Below, piece after piece: positions 657-42,229 of a stretch of 64,000 nucleotides of DNA. Below the pieces are notes generated by a model. It worked only from the letters and a program-made list of their open reading frames with translations, did not search any database and was not told the DNA's origin. Origin of the DNA: Phoronis australis (taxonomy: Eukaryota > Animalia > Phoronida); assembly GCA_002633005.1 (NCBI GenBank), contig NMRA01000399.1, forward strand, positions 326,089 through 390,088, written 5' to 3'. A program made the position numbers and the translations under genes. Position 1 is the first letter of the stretch. Each line of letters opens with the position of its first letter.

Positions 657-3600
657 AATTCTCCTGGTCCCCCGGGAAGGCCTGGACCTCCCGGGCCACA
701 GGGGCCCCCTGGAGACCAAGGTGAAAACGGTAGGGACGGCATTCCCGGATCAAACGGTATACCGGGACCCCCAGGACACGTGTTCATCATGCCGGTAAAT
801 GAAGATGCATGATCACTAAATCTCTAGCACTTGCATAGTAAACTGTTCGTTTTACTTGTTAACGTCTTTGATGTAAGTCACGGTTTTCCTTCCGGCTCAC
901 TAACCGGAAAGTGGCTCCTCTTCTGGGAATTCCATGAGAAAATAGTAAAGTTGCGAATCTGATGTCTACGATCTATGTTGAGAAGGAAGAAATGCCCCAG
1001 TTTTGGATCACGAATGGATTACTTTTCTGTCCTCACAGCCTGGAATGCGTGCAACAATCCATTTGTTAACCCAACCCTGGATTCTCCACCTTACGAGGAC
1101 TTTCACTTGATTTTTTGTCATGAGACTGCTACGTGGAAATCCCTTACTCCAGAAGTCAAGCAATCAAATTAGTATTAATACATTTTAAATCTATTATTAA
1201 AAGATTGCTGTGGTTTTACTCATTCTAACGAGACTATGGTCTATTATCGTAATCTGTTAAGTTAATTGTTTAATTTTTTAAATTTTATTGCATTGTACTG
1301 GTTTGTATTGTATTCTCTTTTGTACTGGTATTGGCTCTCTTGAAAAGTAGTGTTATTACTGCAGACGTCAGCCTCATTTTCAGTATCGCAATAAATGAAT
1401 AAATTTCAATCTAAAGTCATTTCATCCAATGGCCTTATGGAGCAACAGCCATTGTGAGCCGCATGTCATTCTCCCGCCATTGTGGGCCGCATGTCATTCT
1501 CCCGCCATTGTGGGCCACACGTTACACCTCGAGTTATTGTTATAGATTGTCCGTGGCGATAAGAACGATCAACAGCAGACGGCGGCTGTGCGACAGATGT
1601 TGACGCAACACATGGTAAGCCTACTCTATGCCCAACTTACGTGGGTAAACTATTCCTAAATGCAGGAATGCATACTTTGTGTGCTGTGATGGAAACAAAA
1701 CACTGCTTATGTTTTTTCTATCGCTTATTGAAAATTCAACTCTTCAGTATACAAAATGTCATGATTGAAGAGATGAAACAGGACTTGAATCACAGTATTC
1801 CACTCATCAATTCATCAATAAATTCCCTTTTTATTTTAGGTTCGATTCCTATTCTGTGATGTCTATAAGCACAAGCTGATGTACGATTTTGTAACCAACA
1901 TTCTCTTTCACAACCTGGTTCTGTGACCTCCATTACACGTTCCACTATTCGTTTCTCAAACCTGGATTCTATGAAATCCACGATAAACATTTTTCTCATA
2001 TGTTTCCCATCTCTTATTTCCGCGACCATTCGCTTCTCAACAGATGTCGATGAGAGGGGTGCCAGGCCCTCAAGGTATGACTGGCTTACCAGGACCTGTC
2101 GGTCTTCAAGGCGAGGAAGGTCCGAAAGGCGAATCCGGTGAGCCAGGTGAACAAGGTGTGCCAGGACTCAGGGGTGGACAGGGTCTGTCTGGCCGTAAAG
2201 GACGACGGGTATGAAATGCAGAGGCGTCTGAATTAATGAAGTTTGTTGAGGTTAATTCACATGTACTTTCTGGTAGTTACTAGTAGGCATGGCACGTGAC
2301 TACTTGACGCTCTTCTAAACTCGCTTTCCATCAAAGAAACTAAACTTGTCCTTTACTCAGATAAGAATTGGCCGATGGCCTGTCATGACAAGCTTGTTGA
2401 GCCATTACGAGTTGTGAGTTCTCTCTTAGTCCAGTCTATTCTTCTTACTTGAAATCGAAGTCGAAAATATTTTTCAAACTCATGACAATTGTCTGTCATT
2501 CCGTGTTCGATTTTTATTGATTACATGGAGGAGTGTCTAGTTCAGGTTTGCACTTGATGACCCCTATATAGGTGCTGCAAAGTCAGTAGAAATTCGAGAT
2601 TTGGTGTAAAACGTCGAGATTTCGAGTTAGGCTCGAACTTGAATATTGGGTGTCACAAAGTGCAAAGTATGATTACACAATCATCCGTGTAAACCTTAAT
2701 ATACTTGAACACAGTACACATTCATCCGTGTAAACCTTAATATACTTGAGCACAGAATTGTAAACAGTTATCTTGAGTTCGCATTACAGTAGAACGGGAA
2801 GTGTCAAGCATGTTCGAGTTGGGTTTCTAGTTGTTAAAAGAGTAGACGTCGGGCCCTGAAATTATCTGTGAATGGTCTAAATAAAGGGTGAGCGGTATTT
2901 TGACGGTAGGCGGCTCACTTAATTATAGACATCAAGATGTGCACGGGCCAATCGAAACATTTTCTCTTAAATGACGCTTATTTTTCGCTTTCATTTAGGG
3001 TGTTCCAGGAGAAAATGGAGCCCGTGGTTTGTCTGGGCTTCCAGGTGCCAAGGGTTTGCCCGGCTACCCAGGTCTGACTGGATTGCCCGGTGACAAGGGC
3101 CCCGCTGGAATACCGGGGTCACCTGGTCCCATCGGTGCCCCTGGTCGCGAAGGTGCAGCTGGCGATCAGGGTCCTCCGGGACCAAGTGGTGTGCCGGGAG
3201 AAATGGTAGGTGTCAGAAACTCTAAGAGAAAATATATGTTTCACATTTCGCAATTTGCAGCAAATGCCCCTGAGAAACACAGCTTCAATAGAGAATTATT
3301 CATTTTTATGCGCCCACAGTTATATGTGGTCGCATATTGCCGTCATATCTGTCCTGGTGTCCGGCGTCTGCGGCTGTATCTCCTAAGCCCCTTGCAGGAT
3401 GTTACTGAAATTTGGCAAGTGTGTTCCTATGGGGTTGACGACAGAGGGCGACGAGTTTTGGACCGACCCGAATACCGCTGTGCCCCCTAGAGGCAATTTT
3501 AGTTTTTTACGTTCGCCTCTGTTTCTTCAAAGGTCCTCAACCGATTTTCATGAAACTTGGCAGATAGTCATCTATTAATGAGTTGATGCTATCCTCTCGT

Positions 3601-6600: not shown

Positions 6601-9600
6601 TCCGCCTGGTGTCCCTGGTCCTATAGGGAAGCCTGGAATTCCGGGCCATCCAGGTGTGGATGGCAACCCGGTAAGTTGAGATGGACACGTTGGTGTTTGA
6701 ACGCTTACCGCCCGTCGTTGTGATTATTTGGTCACAAAAAGTTTCGTCGACGATCCGATGAATTTGCGATAAAAATATGGCATGTCTGGACCACCCGACC
6801 GGGCATCGGCATAAAAATCATCAAGCGTCACTACTGATCCAATGAAAAATCGCCCGATCATGCTGGGCATCGCTGCATCCCGAAATCCTCGTGCATTTCC
6901 GTACCCTCAAATTTCCCCTTGGAGGTGAACGCTGTATGCGTATATGTGGACTTCACTCATATGGCAGGTCATGTGACTTTCAAACTGGAGAATAATTGGC
7001 CACATGTCTGAAGTTCTCACATGCGCACATAAATTTCAGCGCCATGCAGAAATATGAGGCTACAAAAATACCTGAGATGTTCCAGATGTACACTGGTACA
7101 GAATACTTTCCGCGGGATCGGCCTAGCAACTTGTTGAGACTAAAAGGAATGGAGTGTGGCGTGTAAATTGCTAATTTACTTTAAGAACGAATTTTGTGCC
7201 AAGCAAGATCTGACGTAAATGATCAATCTTTATCCCATACGCTTTGAATCAGTCGCGTGCAATACGGCCATGCAATATATATAGTTTTCCGCACTACTTC
7301 AACAGTGACCTCTGACATGGAAAGTTCAAAAGGTATGTCAATGTTGACTAGACGTCGTTTGCCGGTTCGATCACCAAACTTTCCGAAATAGTTTAAAGTA
7401 ATTCAATTGCAGCAGTGTAAATAACACTCAAAATGCAATCAGGTCCCAAATGTAACATCTGGTACAAAACTGTTAATTATATGACACTTCTGTCTAAGAT
7501 TTCAATAGCTAAATATTATACCGTCTGCAACTCAGGCGCCGATTCCTCTGTAACAGTATCAAATATTGTTGTTATTTAACTATTCAATGCACGCACAATT
7601 GCCGTTGTTTTCATCTTTGTTATCTCTTTTCAAGTAAGAAATCGTTACATTTTAAACTTACTACAGAAAACTTGTAACCTAACGCGCAAGTATATACATA
7701 TAGAATGCGATCCGCCACGTGAACAGTCTGGGTGAAGTATTTAAAAAATCAGCCGAAAAGGTGAAAGAAACTTAAGAATTCGAAGCTTATGGTATAAATA
7801 CAAAATCCGTTCTCGGTCGATACGCGGAATAATGTCTCGTGGGATATTACTTCATCTACGCCATTCTCGGTACGTTTTGTGTATTTATTTAGTTTATACC
7901 GTGACTTAGTACTAGGCACCGTACTGTTTCACCCTTGTTATGATTTAAATCTACATTGCGTATTTTGACCAACAATTGTGTCTTGGCGTTGCAGGTTTTT
8001 CACGTTCTAATTTTCGTCTGTAGGGTATGCCAGGACCTCGTGGTCTATCGGGAGAAAAAGGCGAAAAAGGACCGGAAGGACAGCCAGGCCCGATGGGATA
8101 CCCAGGGCAACGTGGGTTGAAGGTAAACACGAAAACCTTAACTTAACGGTCATTACACTTTTTGTGACCTTGGGCATCTCGCGTAGTACATTGCAGTATT
8201 GGAATCGTTTACATTATAGCTCTCCTACTAAAAGAATTCGAAAGCTCTGATATAAAAACTCGTTCTGGTAAGGAACGCTCGCCACATCCTTGCTATGGAA
8301 ATTAACAATAGTTAAGGGATGTCGATACTGAGTACGAAACACGTTGTTTTGTGCTAATTTAATTTGATGTTTGGAAAATGTTAATTCTGCCTACACGTAC
8401 GTTTGTTTTAAGAGTTTATCCGATTTACCTTACTCAAACCTGCGCAGTCATTTTCCTTATTGTCGTCTTTCTCTACCTTCACGTTAGGGTGATTCGGGAA
8501 AACGGGGAGCTCGAGGCTTTAAAGGTGAGATAGGGCAGATGGGGACAGACGGACCAAAGGGAGCTATGGGCCAGAGAGGCGAAGTTGGATTGAAAGGAGA
8601 TAGGGGCGTAAGGGGCGACGATGGACCACAGGGACCAAAGGTATGGATTTGTGGTTTTAAAAGAAACCTCGGAAACGTGACATGCAGTAAATTTTCATTG
8701 TATTATACGGCGCTGTCGTGTATTTTGACAAGATGGGGTTTATTATTTCGTTAGTGTACAAGTTAATCTTTTTCTAAAATGTAGAATCACATGATCAAAT
8801 TCCGCTACTTGAGCTGGTATCTAGATGGCAATCCTTTGCAAACATTTTACATTGCAATCGCACCTGAAGCGTAATTATGGAGAACTCTGTCAGAGACGAA
8901 TCGCCCAATGAGTGCAAATTTGATTACAGGGTGCTGTTGGACCGGTCGGCGAGACTGGGCCTTCGGGACCACTTGGAGAGAAGGTAAAGTGCAATCCTTC
9001 TATACTTGAGCCATTCATTTTATCTGTTTTTTTTTTAAAGTTATGACCTCTGATCTCTTTCCTTGGAACATTGATCTCACTATCTTCTTCATCAAGACTA
9101 GAATGGATCTTTGAGTTGTTGAAGATTAGGAGTCCGTTTCTGCCTAACTCAGATCAAAGTCAAGCTAACTTAAGACCAAAGTCAAGCTAACTTAAGACCA
9201 AAGTCAAGCTAACTTAAGACCAAAGTCAAGCTAACTTAAGACCAAAGTCAAGCTAACTTCAGGCCAAAGTCAAGCTAACTTAAGACCAAAATGTCTTTGT
9301 CCCGTTTCATGAAATTTGTTAAGACCAAAATCAGTCTAAGCTAAGACTTGCTACGGAGTAGGTTTAAGATTGCACTATTATCACTGTAAACTGATGAGAA
9401 ACGAATTACGTTGACATTTTTCTCAAACTTATGTCCCTACCTAAGCAATGTCAAATTGAAGATAGTCTGTAATCGGCCATGTAAGACAATGCGGCGCGAC
9501 TTACCGGCATATGTGAAGTGATATTTTTCGGCTAGCTACACTGGGGTCTTCTCAGGCAAACAGGATCCAATTGTGTTCAAAATATACATAGATCTTTCTG

Positions 9601-12600
9601 ACCATCCGTCTTAACTTAGCCTGAATGTCGGTCTTATCTTATAAGTCACATTTACATCACAAAAGTTGACACGGATCAGTTGACACGGAACGTGATGATC
9701 GGGCGCAAGTATGTGTGTAAACAGGACTGACAAGGAGCAAACTGACACCACGGTGACAACTTTTGTCACCCGTTTGTGAGGCAGAGCAAGTTATGGCCGA
9801 TCATCTTACTCGCGTCGACAATATGTCTAAACACGAAACTGGGGCAAGACGGAAGGGATTATCTCTATTGCGCTTGTCAGTTGCGCCGTGTCAAAACTAA
9901 AACTTAATTTCTAATTAAAACCAGTTTCATATTGGAACCTTTTGTATTGTTTGCGCTTTAATAATTCGAATTAGCGTTCCTAACTACACGTGATGAAACA
10001 TGGACCAAAGTAAGTTCACTGAACGCGTCAAGGAGAAAATTCGCCATTTCTATATTTATTCCAGTTTGAAGTTCGCGTTCAGTTTGACCTTGTGAGCGAG
10101 GCGTCCCGAGACATGCAGAACAAGCACTATAAATCGATCCATAATTTCTAATGTTGCCAGAATTTGGGGTGTGGGATACGACTACCATTAAATGATGCCA
10201 TTCATTATTTAATTTTCACCTTAGTTATCAACGTATGATAGTTGACAAGAACTTACACCAGTTGAAGGCGAATTTTATTCCTTACGTGAACACTAACTTT
10301 TGAAATGAGTTAATATCTGAAAGTTCCTATAACTGAGTGAATTTTGGGACCTACAAGGGTTTCCTTGATAATTACTTTGAGCCTTGAGTTGTTCTATTCA
10401 AATTTATGCTAGACCTCAGAAATTATCAATTTTCTTTCTGTAGTTCATTTCTACTACGTTCTGAAACCAAGTTGAGAACACGAATGTGCCGTTCTGATTC
10501 CAGGGACAAATGGGTATTCCCGGATTTCCGGGCTATCCGGGTCCTCCAGGCGAGAAAGGTGGTACCGGAGCTACAGGTCGACGCGGACGAGATGGGCAGA
10601 AAGGTTCCACTGTATGTATATCTCAATGATAATAATAGCTTCACATTGACATTTCAGGGACAAATGGGAGTTCCCGGATTCCCGGGTTACCCCGGACCTC
10701 CGGGAATGAAAGGTCACCACGGCGCCACAGGCCGAAGAGGCCGAGATGGTGAAAAGGGATCACCCGTATGTTATAACTGTCTGCCACCGGTGTTTCACGC
10801 TTGTCGCCGAAAAAAAATTAAGCTGACGTGTGCTTTTGTCTTATTGTGTAACCGAAATGCTTGCTTCTTCTCGTTCTGTATGTTGTGTTGAAAGTACTAA
10901 GCATTTAGTATCTAAAGCTTCAGTGTTTTGAGCAGTGCTCTTCGAATAGCCATGGATTATGACAACTAGTTAGATGCTTTAGATTACGCTGTACATTTTA
11001 TAACAAAATTGCTTTTTAGTTTATAATTAATGAAAATAATTTGAGCAAATATCTGGAAAACCCGGAAATTGAAGCTTGTGATTGTGCTGTTACGTTGCGT
11101 GTGTTAACACAGTTACGTGCATTGTAGGCTTGAGGAAACAAGTGGCCTTTTATACTGAGACCAGGCTTCCTCCTTGAACTTCTTGATTAATTGCGGCCTA
11201 AGACAAGAGCTGATTTCCCATTGAAGTTTCACCGTGTTTTATGGAGGAATTTTGTGTCGTACAAGGAAGCGATTGAGCTCATATAATGACCACGCGTGAA
11301 TGTTTACTTTAGCTATCTATATTGTGATATGCTTTGTATTGTAGTTTGATTTTCCGAGATGAAAATGCTGTCGATGAAAACGTGTTTACAATATGCAGTA
11401 ATCAAAGAGAGTCAGGTCTGTCAACAGTTTTATAATACTGTGGTCAAATGATTAAGGAGTCTGGTAACCATATATTACATCTCCTCATTATGCTGTTAAT
11501 TTGCTGCAGGGAGACCCCGGTCCTATTGGAGAAAGGGGGTCACGAGGCCCACGGGGTCAGCGAGGCGAGCGCGGAGGCCCAGGTCCTGAAGGTGAGCTTG
11601 GATTGTAGCCGCGCAACACACGCCACAAAAGCAGAAAAATATCATTTTATAGTATCACTTTAATGGGAAAGGTTATGTTAGAACATTAGATAAAAACCAT
11701 GTACCAAAATTTGACTGTAGCCTCTTACATAGGTTCCGTATTTTGAGAACCAGTCCGATGTTCGATGGAGAAAACTAAATAAATTCTCAAAATGCGATAC
11801 CCTGTATAGCCATTACCCTAAAGCTGTTTGAAGGCAAAATTGGATGCAGCCACAAGAAATGTTTCATCCTGTGCATGTTTTGTGGAAATCTCACGCCATG
11901 AATGTTCTCAAACGCTGATACATTTTGCAGGACCCATTGGTGCAAAGGGGGAATCAGGTCCCGCCGGACCACCTGGAGCAACAGGAGTGCAAGGTCCCAT
12001 GGGACCACAAGGCCCACCAGGCTTTCTTGGACCACCAGGAGGTGCAGGGTTCCCCGGAAAGGACGGTCTTCCCGGACACCCTGGAGACAGAGGCGAAGCG
12101 GTAGGCACCTTGGCCTTTGTCTTACTTCTGCGACATAGTCTACTACATATTTACTGAACAGTTACAAGTTCTACTAGTCAGTGTTCTTGGGAGCTTACCA
12201 ATATGTACTATCTGCCACAGGTCTTCCTCTGAAGGAGAGTGGAAGGTAGAAGAACGATAGGCACAAATCCGTAGACATGTGAAATACGTCAATTTACTTT
12301 TATCTTGTTCCTGATGCATCAGCTGCAAGCCACAAAAGAATTTCTCAATAGATGGAGCTGCATACACTCATCCCCGTAGTGAGGAGTAGCCCTTTGAAAG
12401 AACCATGTAACGGCTTCTCATGAATTAACTGAACAAAGCCACATTCTGACGTTCCGATTGGTAGGAAAATAATACAAAGACGTTCCACTTAGATTTTGGT
12501 TAATACATACAAATACTGCGGCGTTGACCGATGAAAAAACTCTTGGCGAAGAGTGTGGCATGCTGGTAAAAATTCAAAGTTGTGTTTTACACGTGCTATT

Positions 12601-15600
12601 GTCTGTGTTGTTCATTTCTGTGTTTTACACGTGCCATTGTCCGTGTTGTTCATTTCTGTGTTTTACACGTGACATTGTCCGTATTGTTCGTTTCTGCTTG
12701 ACCATTTACATTCCTGACTTCTTGAGTATTTCTGTCACAAATGGACAATGTTTAATTTGTGGGAGGAGTTTATTGCATGCTCCACCTCTTATTGCGTAAC
12801 ATCTTTCTCGATTTCTATAGGGTATTCCAGGCGAGGCTGGCCAACCAGGACCTGTAGGCGTCCCAGGTTTGATGGTAAGGACAGTAGCGCTGTCTGTTGT
12901 TTAGTTTCTGCAATAAAATGTTCAAAACAAAAGTAAATGTACATCTCTAGTACAAACCTTTTCGATTCGAGTGTGTTTTACACCGTAAATAACTTCTACA
13001 TTCTTCCATTGTGACCCAAGTTTGTCAGCTTCATCTCTATTTTTTGGTTCAACGCTCGATTTTGCCGAATCATAGTAGTCGACAAATGAATTAGGGGATA
13101 TTGGTTTCATTGTGATAAAGATGAATGTCTATTCCGTTGAGATTCATATCTCTCGGCGTTTTAATCGTACGTAGCCTACAGAATTTAATCCACTGGAATA
13201 CGTGTACTGTACAATGTGTGACTAATTGTTTTACAAATGACTGTATATGAACTGTACAATGTGTGACTAATTGTTTTACAAATGACTGTATATGAACTGC
13301 AGGGTGCCCCGGGAGCTGTGGGTCAACCGGGAGAATCGGGCCCACCCGGTATTCCAGTAAGTGACAGCACTCCCTCCGAGCACCATTATGTTGATCCCGC
13401 TCATCCATCAATTAAACTCGACTTCACTTTAGTCTCAATACCCGTCTAGCGTCTCAAAGTGGTAACTGCTAATCCCAACCTGCTTCCTTCACACTACCTT
13501 ATGTCTTTTCCACCCACTTCCGTTTCCTCCATTTATCAACCTCTGCTTCACGCCTCAGTTTGGTTATGTATTATCAGGGTCCTATCGGTCTTCCGGGATT
13601 TCCTGGAGAGCAAGGTCAACGTGGAATTCCGGTAAGTATGATGTAACCGGAAGTAAATCGTGTTTCCATGTCACATTTGGCACAGGAATATTTCAGGTGT
13701 GAAAAATGTAATGAATTTTTTTCTTCAATTTAAAGTGTCGTCATTCGATTCTATTTTTGCGACTTTCTATTCAAACCAATACAATACAAGTCAGGTTTTT
13801 AATGAAAAGGCTTGAAATATTACTTTTCACAATCATCTGGAGATGCATCGCGTTACGCATCAAGACTGTCGTGACGACGCATTTAGCTCGTGCGCAAACA
13901 GCCACGTCCAGTCACACGGTAATCCGTTTTATAGGTCAAAAATGGGTAAGCTTATCATTGGTTGGAAACCTTATTTGGCAAGAGCATTACTCGCGCGTCA
14001 CCACTGAAGTCCCCAAGTCCTTAAAGTGGCCAGAGATGGGCACTTGAAGAGTTTTAGAAAAACAGGCTGCTGCTCTTTTGTTTTGTTTTGTTTTGTTTTG
14101 TTTTGTTGCGTTCCACTGCACGCTATATAAAAACCTGTGTATCATTTGATTTTAGCTTTTCGTCTTTTCCCACACCACTTACTGTGACAGTTCCGTTCAA
14201 AGGAACAGCGTTCTCCCATTTAGCCCGTGCATGTAACTGTTCCATTTCCTACGCCCATTCCGTGGCTCATGGCAAAGTCGATAGATGTTTTGGTGCATAT
14301 TTAATACTCGTATGGAAAGAACCGAGAATCAGTAGTTTGATTGATAATGACTACACTTGAATATTTTCGCCTGTTTCACAGAGTCGACTGGCTAAGGCAT
14401 CTGACTGGTACGTAAACCGGAAGTTGTCATCAATTTCACCGTGAACTTTCGTTATTTAGATGAGCTCGTTGTGTCAATTTGATCAGAGCTTCTGCTTGTA
14501 CTGGCTTAATCAAATTCTTCGTGAAGAAAACGTAACGGCTTCACTTCAATGACGTCATTCCTTCGTATAACATTTGCTTCATACATTGTATGTTGACTAC
14601 TAAACGATTACGAATCGTCACCTATGTTTTGATGGATAGTGTAATTACCACGATTTGTTTATAAGTTGTTTTGTGACTTACGAGCCTTATACAATGCGGC
14701 GTCATAACGCTTTTCTCCTTAGTTTGCGATTTCTGAACTGATTACAATCATTTTAAGGCGTTCTGCCGCAGACATGGCTTCGAGTAATAGACGAATCGTA
14801 TGGTGCTACGTTTTGAGAACGACAGTACTATGTTTTAATTAAGATTGTAAATGACCGAATTGTTTCTTGTTTCATGGCGTCGTCTTTAAAAACACGTGTG
14901 CGGTATTAGACGCCATTATAAGCAGCAGAATATCACAGTATAATGTTTTCTCTCCAGGGACCGCCAGGAACACCAGGACTGCCGGGTGAGACAGGTCGAC
15001 CAGGCCCTCCTGTAAGTATTCTTGACCTCTGTCCTTCAGCTGCAAAGGATGTTTTTACAGCCATTCGATCGTACACGTGGCAAATTAACGGATTATATGA
15101 AACGTATACACAGCGTGAATTATTTGTAAGTCGATGTAATTTCCAAAATTCGTCATGTAAAGAGTACTGTAAAAGACGACTGTAGTTACATTATTTGGGC
15201 CACAAATTACTTTAAACAGGTTTTTCAAAATAGAAGTTAAAAGGTACTAGACATAATGCTTCGCTTGCAGTGTGGTTACAGAGTATGAGTGATGAAAAAT
15301 TAACAAGCAGTGGTGTTGACTTTTAGCTCCATAAAAGTTCAACGAATTTTTAACTTCAGTACTTTCGTTCAAGAATGATTGTGATTTCATTTTTCCAAAT
15401 GTTATGTTATATCAGTCTGCCTTGTTTCAAATGACCCCATTTTACCAGCACACCACACTTCAAGATACTGGCGAGTAAAAGTTAGTTTGATCACGTGCTT
15501 CGCTTGTAATGCGTGGCGATATCTCACGAAGTCTTGCTTGGCCTAAGTTTTCTCGCTAGAAATTTGTTCCAAATAACGCAGCCCATACGTTGTTTTATCA

Positions 15601-18600
15601 TACAAACCATGCTAACAGTGAAATAAAAATGTTCATTTATGTTGAGAATTCTCCCAAAATAAAATCTCATTTCCAACAATACTATATGTTACACAGCTGA
15701 AGAAGTATGTTTAACCATTCCATCTACACATTGTAGGGTAACCCAGGTCCACAGGGAATGCCTAGCACGGAAATTGGTCCACCTGGCCCACCCGGTCATC
15801 CAGGCGATAGAGGTCTGCCAGGACCTGTGGTAAGTACGTCACGTGTTTTTGTTGGTAAGCTGCAAATATTAGATCACCTTATTCGTATTCAATTGAGAAT
15901 TATGGTGTTCGTCACGAAATTATCCCGTCCAGATTTGAACACTCTACTTTCGCGGAGATATTAGCGAATTGCTTTAGTAGATTAGTTTTTGAAATGTCGG
16001 GAAATTTTTAGTCTTGTGTGTTACTAGATGCTGGCGTCACCATTCAAACTGTCTGCGATAATAAAACATTGTTGTCTTGAGAAAGATATGCAACGGATTT
16101 ACAATATTGTGTGTAAATGACGCCGTTGTATTTCGGACTAATGGACATCATTAAACTACGTCAGGGATATTCATGGTGAAACTAATGTAATGCGCCTCCT
16201 CCAGAGGGCGCCTCGCTCTAAAAGAAATGAAAACGCTTTGTAGTAAACATGCCGCGCAGAATCATAGTTATTTGCTCTCTGATGATTCGAAGGTTATTGT
16301 TTCAAACGTAGTGTATACATGTTGACTTCTATTTAACAGGGTAAGGATGGTGGAAGAGGTGATTCTGGCACCCAGGGTCAACCAGGACCTCCAGGGCTGA
16401 AGGGAGAGATGGGTCCGGTCGGTGGCAGTGGAGACAAAGGTCCGCGGGGACGACCAGGCAGCATGGGACGATCTGGAGCATCCGGTCCGAAAGGAGAGCC
16501 TGTAAGAAGCTGGGCTATTGAGAATTTTTGAAATGTCGAAGAGTTAGGAACATAATGCTTAGAAAACTGAAGAATAAATGTATGTATATTGGAGATAAAG
16601 GTTGACACAAAAAAATGAGAAAAAAGCGATTATTTATTTGCGCTGATGTATTAGGTAAACGTCATTTTGTCTCGCTGTAATGTGTGCCATAATTTCTGAA
16701 GAACAACCTATGGTAACATTATTTTCATGTAAGTAAGTGAAGTTTTAATGGCTAAATCTGTTCCGAGAGCTTTCTGTTTTATACACGATGTTTTTTGAAA
16801 TGCAGATGTTTTTTGTTCAACTGCTCGTGGCTTGCCAAATAGACATTAGCACTAATGTTTTGTCACAGGAGATCTCTATGGTTATTACAGTATATCAATG
16901 TTTGTTGTGATTAACTTCCGTTGTCAAAAAGAATGCAAAAAGCGGCAAAGTCATCGTTAAACGGGCACTGGTCTAGACATCTTGAGAAGGTCTACTCATT
17001 TAAATGTTTGGTTAAGATTTTACGTCTATATTATTTTTTAGGGTTTATTGAAAATGTCAAAGAAACAACTTTGAACCAAGTGTTTTATTTCCAATATGAT
17101 TTCTTTCTAGGGCTTAGACGGCATGCCGGGACCAGGCGGGTCACCAGGCATACAAGGACCCACCGTAAGTAATTTGGGCGGGTCACCAGGTATACAAAGA
17201 CCCACTGTAAGTAATTTGGGCGGGTCACCAGGTATACAAGGACACACTATTAGTAATTTGGGCGGGTCACCAGGCATAGGAGGATCCACTGTAAGTAATT
17301 TGGGGCCAGAAATTCAGAATTAATTTAAAGCTGCATTTCGCGCTGTTCAGCTGGCTAAAAAGGAAATTCGAATTGAACCCTTTTATTCTCCCAGATTCCG
17401 TCTCGTAATAGTCCATGATTTAATCCTATTTCCATTACCAACCTTTGAGTATCAGCATAGTTATCAATCTTCCGTGATCACTTTTCGCCTGGGTATTTGT
17501 AACTTCAATTGCTCATTTGAAAATTGACGTGTTGACCTTGACTTTGTAGGGTCTTCCCGGCGAACCAGGACCAGTTGGGCCACCTGGTGAGCCAGGCGAT
17601 AGGGTAAGTCTTACCACCAGCAGAGGCATACTCCTGTAAATAGAATTAAGTTCGGAAGGAAGGAACTGTGATCACGTGCTTCGCTTGTAATAAATGGCGA
17701 TGTATCGCGAAGGGTTACGCGATCTTGTGTTTTCGTAAGGTTCTCGGGTATATGAAATGCACTCTAGATCCGTGACTAAGAAATTTTCAAATTGTGACCG
17801 TGACTAGTATGTGATTTACACGATGGTTTCTTGAATTACAGTTGATGGTTGCAGAAGTTGATGATTCATTTAATTTCGTTTTTGTTAAAGCGTAAATGAA
17901 GAGTAAAGAACAGAATTAATTCACGTATCCACGAACTCATTGGTACCATATAGTCTGGCAAAATCTTTATTACCACGTGATCTTATGTACTATGTTAACC
18001 ATTTTGTCGTTTGAAAACCACTCCATACTCTCATCAAAAGAGCCGCATCAAATATAGCTAGCGTGCGTTCACTCTTTCAAAATCTTAAATTTATCAGATT
18101 TACAAACAATTCTCAAGCAAATATACTAGATCCTAATTTAGATACATAGTTCACAGTAATGATAGCAACTGTCAGTTTTAGGTGACTATTGTGAGGTAGA
18201 GACGTGTAGTCACCTTAAAAATCATACTTACAGTAGAAGTTCCCTCCAATATGGCACCAAATCATTTAATTTTGAGGTCGGGATCATGGACTAAATAATT
18301 AAGCCTCGTTTTCATCATAGGGTGAATCGGGGACAGTTGGAAGTAAAGGTTCCAAGGGTGAGAGCGGCAGTGTTGGCAAGGCAGGACCTCAGGGTCCGAG
18401 AGGATCACAGGGACCGCCAGGCATTCCGGTAGGAAATTAACAAGTCCAGTGATTACATGATCGTATTTGTAGCATCGTATCTCTAATGTGCAACAGAAGT
18501 CCAGGTGCACGCGATGTGCACGCGCAGCCTTAGATTACTCTCGTCATCTATGCAGCGTTGTCTCATCGTCTTCTTGGAATTTGTCAGAGCCAAATAATTA

Positions 18601-27600: not shown

Positions 27601-29316
27601 AACGACGCTATTCAGGTGATGTGTAACTTTAGCAAGGAATACCAACAGACCTGCCTATTCCCGACACACGACACGAGGATGGTGTCGCCGAGACATTGGA
27701 AGAAAGGCAAGGATAACACGTGGTTCAGCGAAATGGATCAAGGTTTTGAGGTGATTGCAACAGCTGATCATGTATTTTTATTATTATGTGTTGAAGGTAA
27801 TCCATGTTCAGATTATCGACGCTTGAATTTCGCATACTGTAGTACATCCAAAATAATGTCTGGAGTTCACTGAATTTTTGGAGAAGGTAAAAGGTGAATT
27901 CTACGATTCAGATTCATATTGCTTAAAGTCATATTTTAAGTATGGTTTTGAAAAAATCTGTGGTGTGAGTAGAATCAATGCACTGGAAATTACTCGACTC
28001 GATACAACCTTATGAGTTCATACTGTCATAACGAATAGTTCAAGTCGTCTTTATCCTTGCTCTCTGTGAACATAGTTATACAATCACCACTACTGCTACT
28101 AAGACAACATTTAAGCTGGTCACAAAACAACTTTTGATGTAAATCACTTACACTAATGAAATTGTTCGTTAGTCAAAACCGTGTGATCTGGGATTGTAAC
28201 CTTAATTTTTATTGTTGCTTGAGAAATGGCCTCGAGCAATAATAAGCTGTTTGTTCTTTGCTAGAGCAAAATCGCTTCTCATTCGAGCAACAAAGGAAAT
28301 TTTGTAAGCCAATTTTATAGCAGCTAATGCTCTGTAGTAAAAGTTCATCGCCGCTTTAATTTTATGCTTACTTGAACGCGCAACTTTGACCTGTTCCTTC
28401 AGATTGATTACGGACAGAAGACACAGTTGGCGTTCCTTCGTCTACTTCACGGCGAGGCTTCGCAAGAATTTACATACTACTGCAGCAACGCCGTGGCACA
28501 CTATAACAAAGCCAAGGGTAACTACGCCAAGGCCGTCGTGTTGCTAGGAGCAAACGAGCACGAGTGGACGGGTCCTACAATGAATGGGTTCGACGTAGTC
28601 TATGACGGATGTCAGGTAAGCACTTACGTCATGCTAGAAATAATTTTTGAGCATTAACTTATGTGTTTCTTTTATATTGGTCCTGTTGTACGTAACGCTC
28701 TTGGCCAGATCATAATGTGGGTAGGTTCAGTCTTTAGGAATGTTCAAAGTGGTGAATGTTTAGAGAATTAAACAATGACAGCCGGGAAGGTCGCCGAACT
28801 TTGCGGTGACCGGTAGAGAAGAGAAGACGACTGACATCCAAGGCGGGGGAAAGAAAAAATCTAAAATTCACCCGTCTTCTTCGAACAACTAGTAGCTATG
28901 AAACGTTGATCCTTGTGAGGTCTAAGTGCTTGGCTATTGACAGAAACCAAGAAAACTTAGAATCACATATCATTAAATTTAGTTAGTTGGCCTAAACAGG
29001 GTGTTAAGAAGTGATTGAATTGTTGAATTGTCGACTATGCAATGGACTAAGGTTACGATATTCCAAAGCGTGTGTTAGTCCTTATATTGGACCAGTGTGT
29101 TTTCCAATCAAACTGGTAACAGAATGATACACTTATTCGACAAAAACATTATTTTGATTTCCTTTTTTTCAGGAGAACAAAAATAAGCAGTACACCAAGT
29201 TCCAAATTAAAACAGTCAAAAAGAACAGGCTCCCAGTTATAGATTTCCAACCGAAAGATTACGGAAAACCATGGCAAAAGTTCGGCTTCGAAGTTGGTCA
29301 GCTCTGTTTCCGATGA
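657..29316 (+). CDS. Fibrillar collagen alpha chain, clade B (COL5/COL11-like); 5'-partial, spliced
   Basis: AG/GT-bounded exons read in frame: 657-794, 1546-1614, 2044-2208, 2999-3205, 5657-5755, 6518-6670, 8024-8122, 8488-8640, 8930-8983, [10504-10611 | 10658-10765], 11510-11591, 11931-12100, 12821-12874, [13303-13356 | 13578-13631], 14958-15011, 15737-15829, 16340-16501, 17111-17164, 17550-17603, 18321-18428, 18799-18852, 19141-19302, 20020-20127, 21015-21122, 21652-21759, 22299-22460, 23174-23227, 23855-23962, 24309-24416, 25541-25594, 26472-26543, 26813-27128, 27566-27750, 28403-28615, 29173-29316 (TGA). Helix exon sizes are mostly 54/99/108/153/162 nt. Minor-helix end [10 protein letters not shown], linker ...[14 protein letters not shown], furin site RRRRR, COLFI motifs [36 protein letters not shown]. 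Triplet-by-triplet similarity to alpha1(XI)/alpha1(V), recalled from memory. Confidence 0.95.
1030..1405 (+). mobile_element. Degenerate LINE (L2/CR1-like) 3' end
   Basis: AT-rich 3'UTR ending in a ctctcttgaaaagtagtg...ctgcag stem and an aataaatgaataaat tail; resembles the - strand copy at 56.7 kb. Confidence 0.35.
1448..1516. repeat. 28-bp tandem repeat, about 2.5 copies
   Basis: gccattgtgggccgcatgtcattctccc. Confidence 0.9.
3303..4612 (+). mobile_element. Non-autonomous Helentron/HINE (DINE-1-like) element with an internal tandem array
   Basis: Starts tttttatgcgcccac with an inner inverted copy (gtggtcgcat); internal ~145-bp monomers in a ~436-450-bp higher-order repeat; ends with hairpin aacgcgccgcgtt plus gctcttgtt. 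Confidence 0.6.
4685..5419 (-). mobile_element. Possible LTR remnant with a PBS-like sequence
   Basis: Inverted ends AATTACA...TGTAATT (4733/5419); on the - strand the end is followed by TGGTGACACCCC (PBS-like). Confidence 0.3.
5992..6242 (+). mobile_element. tRNA-derived SINE with a 14-bp target-site duplication
   Basis: Box A tggcctggttg, box B ggttcaagtcc, then cccttgagccagg core and an AT tail; TSD ttctgaaaaaatat at 5978-5991 and 6243-6256. Confidence 0.8.
6898..7067. mobile_element. MITE (second copy at about 38885-39045)
   Basis: TIR cctcaaatttc ... gaaatatgagg; internal gtca(t/c)gtgactttcaaa shared with the copy in cathepsin intron 2. Confidence 0.6.
9155..9290. repeat. 22-bp minisatellite x6
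   Basis: aaagtcaagctaacttaagacc. Confidence 0.95.
10504..10611 (+). CDS. Collagen helix exon 10a (108 nt; [36 protein letters not shown]), candidate mutually exclusive exon
   Basis: Acceptor ttccag|GGA, donor ACT|gtatgt, 12 perfect Gly-X-Y triplets; paralogue of the next exon. Confidence 0.88.
10658..10765 (+). CDS. Collagen helix exon 10b (108 nt; [36 protein letters not shown]), candidate mutually exclusive exon
   Basis: Acceptor tttcag|GGA, donor CCC|gtatgt, 12 perfect triplets; 30/36 aa identical to 10a; 46-nt spacer. Confidence 0.88.
12581..12696. repeat. 38-bp tandem repeat, about 3 copies
   Basis: tgtgttttacacgtgccattgtccgtgttgttcatttc. Confidence 0.85.
13206..13299. repeat. Exact 45-bp tandem duplication just upstream of the 13303 acceptor
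   Basis: actgtacaatgtgtgactaattgttttacaaatgactgtatatga x2. Confidence 0.9.
13303..13356 (+). CDS. Collagen helix 54-nt exon [18 protein letters not shown] (candidate alternative A)
   Basis: ctgcag|GGT ... CCA|gtaagt, 6 triplets. Confidence 0.85.
13578..13631 (+). CDS. Collagen helix 54-nt exon [18 protein letters not shown] (candidate alternative B)
   Basis: tatcag|GGT ... CCG|gtaagt, 6 triplets; preceded by a long pyrimidine-rich, AG-free stretch. Confidence 0.85.
17135..17302 (+). repeat. 42-bp tandem repeat x4 spanning an exon end and its 5' splice site
   Basis: ggcgggtcaccaggcatacaaggacccacc|gtaagtaatttg. Confidence 0.95.
23450..23790. repeat. 46-50-bp minisatellite, about 7 copies
   Basis: ctaaataacatgcgacagtttgtttgactgatagcgaggctactagcaaa. 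Confidence 0.9.
25098..25250. mobile_element. Small MITE
   Basis: Inverted ends ggcctcccgttcagtaacgctag / ctagcgtctactgaacgcaagcc. Confidence 0.55.
26813..29316 (+). CDS. Collagen C-telopeptide, furin site and COLFI C-propeptide exons
   Basis: Exons 26813-27128, 27566-27750, 28403-28615, 29173-29316 with standard COLFI motifs; stop TGA 29314-29316. Confidence 0.93.
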
Positions 29317-33289: not shown

Positions 33290-35620
33290 GGCGTGAATGG
33301 AGTGAGTAAATATCTTTTCAATTAATATATTTTGTTTTTAACAATTAATAATTTTGGAAGAAAGTTGAAGAGGCTCTTGGCTTTAGTGAGTGGTATTGGT
33401 AATAATGGGTTGAGCGGTGGAAGTGTTACACAAAAATCGACGTATCTTGAGGGGACATTTTTTGTCGTTTGGATGAATCAAGATTGATGTCATCATGAAA
33501 ATCTGAGACAAATGGGGTAAGAGCTTATTACAAGACTGATAGAAAAATTTTAGGCAGGAAATATGAAAAATGTCGTTTAAGGAAAGAAGACTCAGTGATC
33601 GAAATAACGGGTCAGTATGAGCTAGGAAGCATGATGACGTAATATTTCGAACAGCACGTTTTTGTAATACTTGTAGTCGACGGCAGTTGTGGAAACCTCA
33701 ACATGTTACAGCATATTAAGTAAATTGTGGTAAAATGAGAGATTTATAAATTAAAAGAAGAACATGTTGAGGAAATGTTCTTTTTATCTTGTGCAGTACA
33801 CCACATGTTTCAGCAGTCTTGTTTGCTCTTTCTTGTATACGTTTGTTCCAAGATAAGTGTCTTTCTACATAGGCGGATTTAGGGGGGGCAGGGGGCCCGC
33901 CCCCCCCCCNTGTTTGGGGGGGGGGCTCAGATCCAATGTCAAGTGTCAAATTCGGAACACGGTTTATTCGTAACGGAACTATGGCTAAGTATAGGCTCTC
34001 CCGCGATATCCCAGGCGACCGGCAGTGGCACTACGACTCCGTTTCCGTCGTCTGCTCCACTGTGCAATGAAGAAAATTTACTTCATTTTTTAAAGAAAAT
34101 GGAACCTGAGTGACGATGAAAAAACAGAAGCTGCTGGTAAGATGTGAATTTTAATAGAAGCCTTAGTGAATCACTCAGAAACTCATAATTCTCTCTTTGT
34201 CAAACCTTAACTTAAGACGATTTCCAAAGCAATCCCGTCATTATTGCCAACACGAAAAACGAATTTGGTCTTTTAGGCATTTGAAGACTATTTTAAATAC
34301 AAAAAAATTGTTAAGAACCGATTGCACAAAATATAAAACGTGTAATAAGCATTACAAAAAGAAGTAGGTTTCGCGCGCAAACGCTGTGGACCATAAACAA
34401 GTAGGTCTCTTAGTATACGATCAGTAATTAAGGCGTGGTGGTGTAGTGGTAAAGCATGCGCGCTCTATTGACCAGTTCGAGTCTCTGGTATCTTGCAGTT
34501 TTCTTGTTTGACACGTTTTTTTGTTTTTTTTTGCCTTTTTTCTTGGATAATACTTCAGGAATCAAGGAAAATGTTTGATTTTTAGAGGAAAAAACAGAAA
34601 AATTTCCTGGGCAGGAGGGAGGAAACCCCCCTCCCGACCTCCCCCCATTCGGTGCTATGCGCATCTACAATCGTGGTTTGCGCAAATGCTTACAGCCGGA
34701 CAAAATGTTGGGTCCCCCTTGCGATATCCTAGATCCGCCACTGGTCTAGATGTAATCCCAAAAACTTAAATGTTTCGACATATGTGATTGCCTTGTTCAG
34801 GATTTGCAGATCAGGAATGTGTTGCTCTTTGAGATATTTCTGAGGAAAGCTAAATAACATGTATTTGGTTTTTGAGGAGTTAAGCGAGAGTTTATTTGCT
34901 ATCACCCAGGCAGTTAGACGTGAGAGTTCATTGTTTAAGAAAACAGCTGATGCATCTGTTGAGAAAGTGCTTATGTTAAGAGGGGTGATAAGGCACGTGT
35001 CATCTGCGTACATGAGTACATCAAGTGAATTGGATAGATGTAGACCATTTACATATACCAGAAAAAGAAAGAGTCCCAGAATGGAACTTTGAGGAACACC
35101 AGTGGTAATCTGTAAGTTGGCAGATTCTTCTTTTGTCAACAAATACGAATTGCATTCTGTATGATAAATAACTTGTGAACCACTGTATTTCATTGCCACG
35201 AATACCGTAGTATTGTAATTTCTGAAGAAGAATTTTGTGATCAATGGTTTCAAATGCCTTTGAGAGATCGATAAATGGTGTTAAAGGATTTTGACCTCTA
35301 GCTAGAAAAGTGTGCATTTTGTCAAAAAGTTCAAGAGCAGCACGTTCAGTAGAAAAATTCGCGCGAAAACCATATTTGATGCTTGTAGAGAATTTCATTT
35401 TTATTTAGTGATGTATATAACTGCTCAATCACAATTTTCTCAAATAATTTGAAAATTTTTACGTTAGTATGGATAATGAACAATAGATGGATAGAACAGA
35501 GTCATCAAGATCATTTCCTTTGAATACTGGAATTGTTTTGCAATTTTAAGTTGATTAGGAAAGACTCCCTGCATAAGCGATTGATTGATAAGAAACGTGA
35601 TTGGAGGTGTAAGTTCGTCG
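33290..35620 (-). pseudogene. Degenerate non-LTR retrotransposon (L2/CR1/Crack-like) reverse transcriptase, frameshifted and interrupted
   Basis: YGFRANFSTERA, FIDLSKAFETIDH, TGVPQSSILG..LFLVYVN, MYADDT, NKLSLNSSKTKYM, FKFLGLHLD | RHLSWNKRI, LLLIYKSLILP, spread over several frames. Confidence 0.9.
33868..34743. mobile_element. hAT-like non-autonomous element inserted in the LINE
   Basis: Ends cataggcggatttagg(G)n ... cctagatccgccactg; splits the LINE peptide LHLD|RHLSW. Confidence 0.7.

Positions 35621-37548: not shown

Positions 37549-42229
<4,681 letters not shown>

Follow-up and report, generated by a model that had tools for sequence, protein, structure and literature searches.

Twin triple-helix exons, very probably used one at a time and likely kept from joining by a 46-nt intron, in a type V/XI-like fibrillar collagen gene of Phoronis australis

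The main helix of fibrillar collagens is regarded as fixed in length and sequence, and an in-frame gain or loss of an exon upsets the register of the chain. What, then, does it mean that a gene of this kind carries two near copies of one helix exon side by side? The question is raised by a stretch of 64,000 nt of Phoronis australis DNA (the window, from contig NMRA01000399.1), where two exons, called a (10504-10611, + strand) and b (10658-10765, + strand), are separated by a spacer intron of 46 nt (10612-10657, + strand), which contains the acceptor of b and is likely too short to excise. Overall, we think it likely that a and b are a duplicated pair used exclusively, with the 46-nt intron blocking their joining.

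What kind of gene is this? A six-frame scan of the window finds Gly-X-Y exons in a run from 666 to 26848 on the + strand, and a 37-exon model from 657 to a stop codon at 29316 reads open once a single member of each alternative pair is dropped. The window begins inside the gene, whose 5' end lies upstream. The order of domains is minor helix, major helix and C-propeptide: the minor triple helix of the N-propeptide has 13 triplets (666-782), the major helix has 1015 residues when each alternative pair contributes one exon, including one Gly-X-Y-Z imperfection, and COLFI (PF01410) is above the Pfam cut-off on 3 of the 3 C-terminal exons tested. The best named database matches are COL11A1 and labels of type V/XI/XXIV/XXVII, at 31-46% identity. 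Judged by its sequence, the gene is a type V/XI-like (clade B-like) fibrillar chain. The helix of human types I-III, V and XI has 1014-1020 residues, as given in PMC2852846, and the predicted major helix agrees with the clade B type both in this length and in colinearity with alpha1(V)/alpha1(XI).

Some features of the gene and of the window should be recorded here. The Gly-X-Y-Z imperfection lies in a helix exon of 93 nt (15737-15829) and gives one residue more than alpha1(XI)/alpha1(V). The intron between 11591 and 11931, confirmed by RNA reads, is the sole phase-1 intron in the major helix. At 17135-17304 there is a 42-nt repeat in 4 copies, which reproduces the end of exon 17111-17164 on its 3' side together with the donor; the repeat is in frame and without stops, and the RNA comparison described below covered 7800-13800 only. 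Judging from the letters, the downstream donors in this repeat could add units of 14 residues with an interruption. Elsewhere the window holds a papain-family (cathepsin L-like) protease gene with Peptidase_C1 (37550-39768, + strand; introns seen >400 nt), and an uninterrupted ORF of 693 codons with an ion-transport domain, PF00520 (51743-53824), which resembles a TRP-type channel. Fragments at 33383-35404 on the - strand, broken over several frames, resemble a non-LTR retroelement reverse transcriptase.

Are a and b true copies, and how old are they? An earlier note, made from the letters of this DNA, had described them as matching in length, phase and donor, and so they do: each is 108 nt, phase 0-0, with an AG acceptor and a GTATGT donor. 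Its count of 30 identical residues out of 36 with 17 synonymous codon differences is reproduced exactly, the other codons being 13 identical and 6 non-synonymous; the residue changes from a to b are I5V, E17M, G20H, T21H, Q32E and T36P. At the nucleotide level 78 of 108 positions agree (72%), and the similarity stops about 7 nt beyond the exon borders. Identity at the X and Y positions is 18/24, more than in any of the 49,455 in-register pairs of segments from this helix (maximum 11, mean 3.0), and thus a and b are a duplication. The divergence is dS 1.6 and dN 0.14 (dN/dS about 0.09), or dS 1.22 and dN 0.21 when Gly codons are left out (dN/dS 0.18, Fisher p=0.002), and all 12 glycines are retained in a as in b. 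These values support the view, already put forward in the note, that one triple-helix exon was duplicated in tandem long ago and that purifying selection has acted on both copies. An assembly duplicate, which the note had also argued against, or collapsed alleles are excluded by the 72% identity, by changes that are mostly synonymous and by RNA that maps separately to each copy. Retention of the spacer shifts the frame, again as claimed, and brings in four consecutive in-frame stop codons.

Are both exons used, and are they ever used together? RNA was compared with 7800-13800 at 85% likeness in four runs. Three of them are stranded raw reads from a single study, of which 18-19% per run was covered, and the fourth consists of contigs from a second study (X1). 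Exon reads show few differences from the window sequence, and first mates map to the minus strand, which agrees with a transcript from the + strand. Dispersed repeats at about 7811-7890 and 9650-9870 are transcribed on both strands.

The constitutive helix exon upstream (8930-8983, + strand, 54 nt), itself entered by the junction 8640>8930, is joined to b with a skipped (8983>10658) in 39 reads (5/12/22 in the three raw-read runs) and one contig. The constitutive exon downstream (11510-11591, + strand) is joined from b (10765>11510) in 73 reads (8/16/49), and from a with b skipped (10611>11510) in 4 reads (1/0/3) and one X1 contig, mismatch-free over 10519-10611. Exon b is the dominant form: it makes 73 of the 77 downstream joins and a makes 4 (5%, CI 1-13%), or 1/9, 0/16 and 3/52 by run, with run X3 showing no a. 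The contigs, which carry no levels, reach the downstream exon through a and connect upstream through b, and hint that a makes up more of the messages in the X1 sample. The earlier note had named these junctions as the ones to count. Of the two joins that would connect a to its neighbours, the exit was seen, and the entry (8983>10504) was not among the best 15 of 23 joints. Nor did these best 15 of the 23 joints in 7800-13800 include the double skip (8983>11510) or the join of a to b (10611>10658), whose abundance the note had regarded as a sign against exclusive use; a deletion of 46 nt was not among the RNA rows listed.

Could a fraction of the messages still include both exons and encode a helix of 1051 residues? 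Both are in frame, and the a-b join was sought among the best 15 of 23 joints. Against this, a 46-nt skip or deletion is absent from the joints listed, and the depth from bins in the three runs is 2.6/1.6/2.0 on a, compared with 9.2/19.9/52.7 on b and 7.5/21/64 on the downstream exon. With such low depth relative to b, a cannot sit in most b-containing messages; joining of a to b is restricted to a few percent in runs X3 and X4, and the reads from a to the downstream exon together with intronic background explain the depth that a has. The helix register also fits only one exon. In the alpha1(XI) segment 9wxp_BC, exon 8488 matches residues 8-58, exon b 77-112, and exon 11931 from 140 on. Between the outer two of these matches lie 81 residues, the sum of 18+36+27, which leaves room for one of a and b only. 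Five exons map colinearly on the 9WXP alpha1(XI) segments (helix positions 52 and 307 among the colinear points), and the sixth, 16340-16501, gave an uninformative match. When the register was compared with fish COL11A1 proteins, which are mostly broken gene models, models with double inclusion often scored equal or higher. All considered, double inclusion is very improbable.

Should b rather be seen as effectively constitutive, and a as a leftover duplicate spliced as noise? The 4 of 77 downstream joins and the absence of a from X3 would fit this. However, at a dS of 1.6 a neutral copy would lose glycines, frame or splice sites, while a retains all of them; its acceptor ranks among the strongest, and the X1 assembly reaches the downstream exon through it. 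This explanation seems to us just as hard to believe as double inclusion. Since junction reads skip either exon and the register fits one, we are highly confident that a and b are mutually exclusive, as the earlier note had proposed. A transcript would take in either a or b at helix residues 307-342, a giving the minor and b the major form, and skip the other; with either exon the helix has 1015 residues and keeps the register of type XI.

Then what keeps the two exons apart? One answer may be the spacer. The introns of the gene other than the spacer number 35 and all measure 221-2451 nt in the 37-exon model, in line with the earlier statement that they exceed 200 nt, and the two shortest introns of the gene are the two that lie within alternative pairs (46 and 221 nt). 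Branch-point candidates lie at nt 14, 18, 21, 24, 32 and 38 of the spacer, the last two being those pointed out in the earlier note. A distance of <50 nt between donor and branch point serves as the steric criterion in PMC5740500, where 57 human clusters (9%) are so classed. As the spacer is 46 nt, every branch point inside it is less than 50 nt from the donor of a. This donor would then be too near any branch point serving b for the spliceosome to assemble. In C. elegans, excision was never seen for introns of less than roughly 40 nt that separate exons of this kind, the 30-nt intron of let-2 among them (PMC4165533); the 46-nt spacer exceeds this minimum. In humans, splicing removes introns of 43, 49 and 56 nt, with a G-rich enhancer in those of 43 and 49 nt (PMC4463651), and the spacer is A/T-rich without such an enhancer. 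The 35 other introns of this one gene, each at least 221 nt, suggest that the species has no short-intron class; the two cathepsin introns in the window are >400 nt. Given exclusive use, a steric cause is something we infer with good confidence, although human introns of 43 and 49 nt are spliced and the floor of intron length in this species is here a one-gene estimate. Note that double inclusion would be in frame and escape nonsense-mediated decay, so decay cannot police it.

A different explanation accepts exclusive use and holds that the 46-nt intron can be spliced, the choice being enforced by regulators, by RNA structure or by removal of chains that are out of register through double inclusion. 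The splicing of human introns of 43-56 nt (PMC4463651) agrees with this, and so does a second pair of exons in the same gene, which looks exclusive with a spacer of 221 nt, so that the gene may need no steric lock.

The second pair follows a constitutive exon at 12821-12874 (+ strand), which is joined to both members. The minor member (13303-13356, + strand) is entered by 12874>13303 in 7 reads with 6 starts, all from run X4, and the major member (13578-13631, + strand, helix 445-462) by 12874>13578 in 72 reads (3/21/48); loose read ends there match exon 14958. An exit junction from 13356 was not among the best 15 of 23 joints. Each of the two has 54 nt that encode perfect Gly-X-Y, and a helix with both would have 1033 residues. 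In 9WXP both clade B chains leave 54 residues between exons 11931 and 15737, with the segments assumed contiguous; this equals two constitutive exons of 18 residues plus one exon of the pair, and thus fits exclusive use. X/Y identity between the two is 4/12, a value reached by 3201 of 53,301 background pairs, so homology is undetectable. Taken together, it is somewhat probable that 13303-13356 and 13578-13631 are mutually exclusive. The intron between them (13357-13577, + strand), the second shortest of the gene, has 65% pyrimidine, the highest of 36 introns. There is no clear steric case for this spacer: AG dinucleotides occur along its whole length, and a candidate branch point (YTNAY) lies 116 nt from the donor. 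The second pair probably acts by a non-steric route, which with a and b would give up to four chains of equal length. Just upstream of 13303, an ACTAAT branch-like motif is present twice owing to a tandem duplication of 45 nt (13203-13292).

Are there signs of regulators around a and b? By a gene-internal matrix the acceptors of both exons are strong and both donors are below the median, so the choice between a and b probably needs regulators. Of the 36 introns, the one after b is richest in YGCY and in TGT, which would favour control by regulators rather than by the spacer. The earlier note had pointed to a Muscleblind-type YGCY cluster after b and an ACTAAC at 10292 as possible regulatory elements. 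Both exist, but neither is enriched beyond chance: the 7 YGCY in the 200 nt after b, the top value of 36 introns, are reached by 167 of 1000 dinucleotide shuffles, and ACTAAY occurs 14 times in 24.4 kb of introns, with 0.87 expected in an intron of the size of that holding 10292. Control by Muscleblind (YGCY) or STAR proteins (ACTAAC) through these motifs has no statistical support, both being at background, and was dropped. A 22-nt tandem repeat in 6.7 copies (9144-9290) is the source of most CTAAC in the upstream intron. Pairing between docking and selector sequences was likewise rejected: a search for long complementary arms linking the pair to the flanking introns found none, only short imperfect ones, the best 18-19 nt at 74-83%. 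With motifs at background, no long arms, no G-rich enhancer in the spacer and no short-intron class in the gene, exclusive use with a spliceable 46-nt intron is possible, yet we rate it as unlikely, and the steric block by the spacer is preferred.

What could be gained from such a choice? Twin exons may let the gene vary six helix residues without upsetting chain register or fibril stagger. By analogy with let-2, one might guess that tissue or developmental stage decides which of a and b is taken. A more specific lead concerns cross-linking. Three of the six changes from a to b create M-K-G-H-H in b, with K-G-H-H at 10709-10720 (+ strand; Lys at helix 324) where a has K-G-G-T. K-G-H occurs at two sites only in the helix, 324 in exon b and the C-terminal site 925, compared with a chance expectation of about 0.7 (33 Y-position Lys, 7 X-position His, 337 triplets), and a collagen chain in the PDB aligns its K-G-H-R to the K-G-H-H of exon b. 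At the N-terminal site, K84-G-P-A (3095-3106), the His is missing, and 17 of 17 long fish chains compared have K-G-H there. Helical acceptor sites of cross-links are K-G-H-R in most clade A chains, in a survey that omitted clade B (PMC5120351), and in type I the sites are 87 and 930 with D = 234 (PMC4450265). Lys324 is 240 residues, roughly one D-period, past the N-terminal site, 324 modulo 234 is 90, and at 3D stagger Lys324 shares its axial band with the lysine of the C-telopeptide (1030). We know of no cross-link at 3D stagger. Splicing might thus switch the cross-linking chemistry of the fibril, b adding K-G-H-H and a removing it, with four rods when the second pair is counted, but we regard this as quite doubtful. 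If it were true, one fibril-nucleating collagen gene would yield four rods of equal length whose surfaces for cross-linking or binding differ, with tissue or stage controlling the choice.

How does this pair compare with known systems? Word-index searches and a phmmer search found no relatives closer than about 55% identity, and mostly fragments, and none of 196 other proteins compared matched the peptides of a and b at more than 21/36 residues. Among the matches listed in the literature search, which left subscription journals mostly outside its scope, none describes twin Gly-X-Y exons in the main helix of a fibrillar collagen, and the nearest published case is C. elegans let-2, a type IV gene. 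The earlier note had cited alpha-tropomyosin exons 2/3 and had missed this much closer precedent as well as the second pair and the dominance of b. In alpha-tropomyosin, as here, a donor lies near the downstream branch point and rod segments of equal length keep the register. The tropomyosin branch point lies far upstream within a longer intron, whereas for a and b the entire intron is short.

The let-2 gene encodes alpha2(IV) collagen with mutually exclusive exons 9/10 (PMC2119826) of 108 and 111 nt, separated by a 30-nt intron (PMC4165533). Both systems have duplicated collagenous exons of about 108 nt that preserve the frame, are exclusive and enclose a very short intron as a steric block, likely so in the present gene. 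They differ in that let-2 makes a network chain and its exons, unequal in length, differ mainly in an interruption of 9-10 residues, while a and b are equal, are 46 nt apart and belong to the uninterrupted Gly-X-Y of a fibrillar chain. For let-2, unlike a and b, a developmental switch and the regulator ASD-2 have been shown. The STAR-protein motif of let-2 is CUAAC; the intron after b (10766-11509) contains 0 CTAAC and 0 ACTAAY, and in this too the pair is not the let-2 system. Closer in clade are COL11A1, whose variable-region exons 6a/6b/8 are alternatively spliced (PMC7558312), and COL5A1, with an exclusive pair of 69 nt among the rows listed in PMC5740500; these share with a and b the collagen clade and an exclusive choice, but their exons are non-helical. 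In the COL24A1 and COL9A3 candidates among the same rows, the partner of a helix exon is no Gly-X-Y twin but a non-collagenous exon that differs from it in length.

Compared with these systems, what is new is an RNA-supported exclusive pair inside a fibrillar main helix, likely steric, with a probable second pair. Twin exons of equal length vary the surface of the rod and leave the register unbroken, and the RNA shows this in use here. The isoforms, which differ at six residues, are a natural matched pair for studies of cross-linking, ligand binding and fibril diameter, and the 46-nt spacer, alongside other introns of more than 220 nt in the same gene, offers a borderline test of the steric model.
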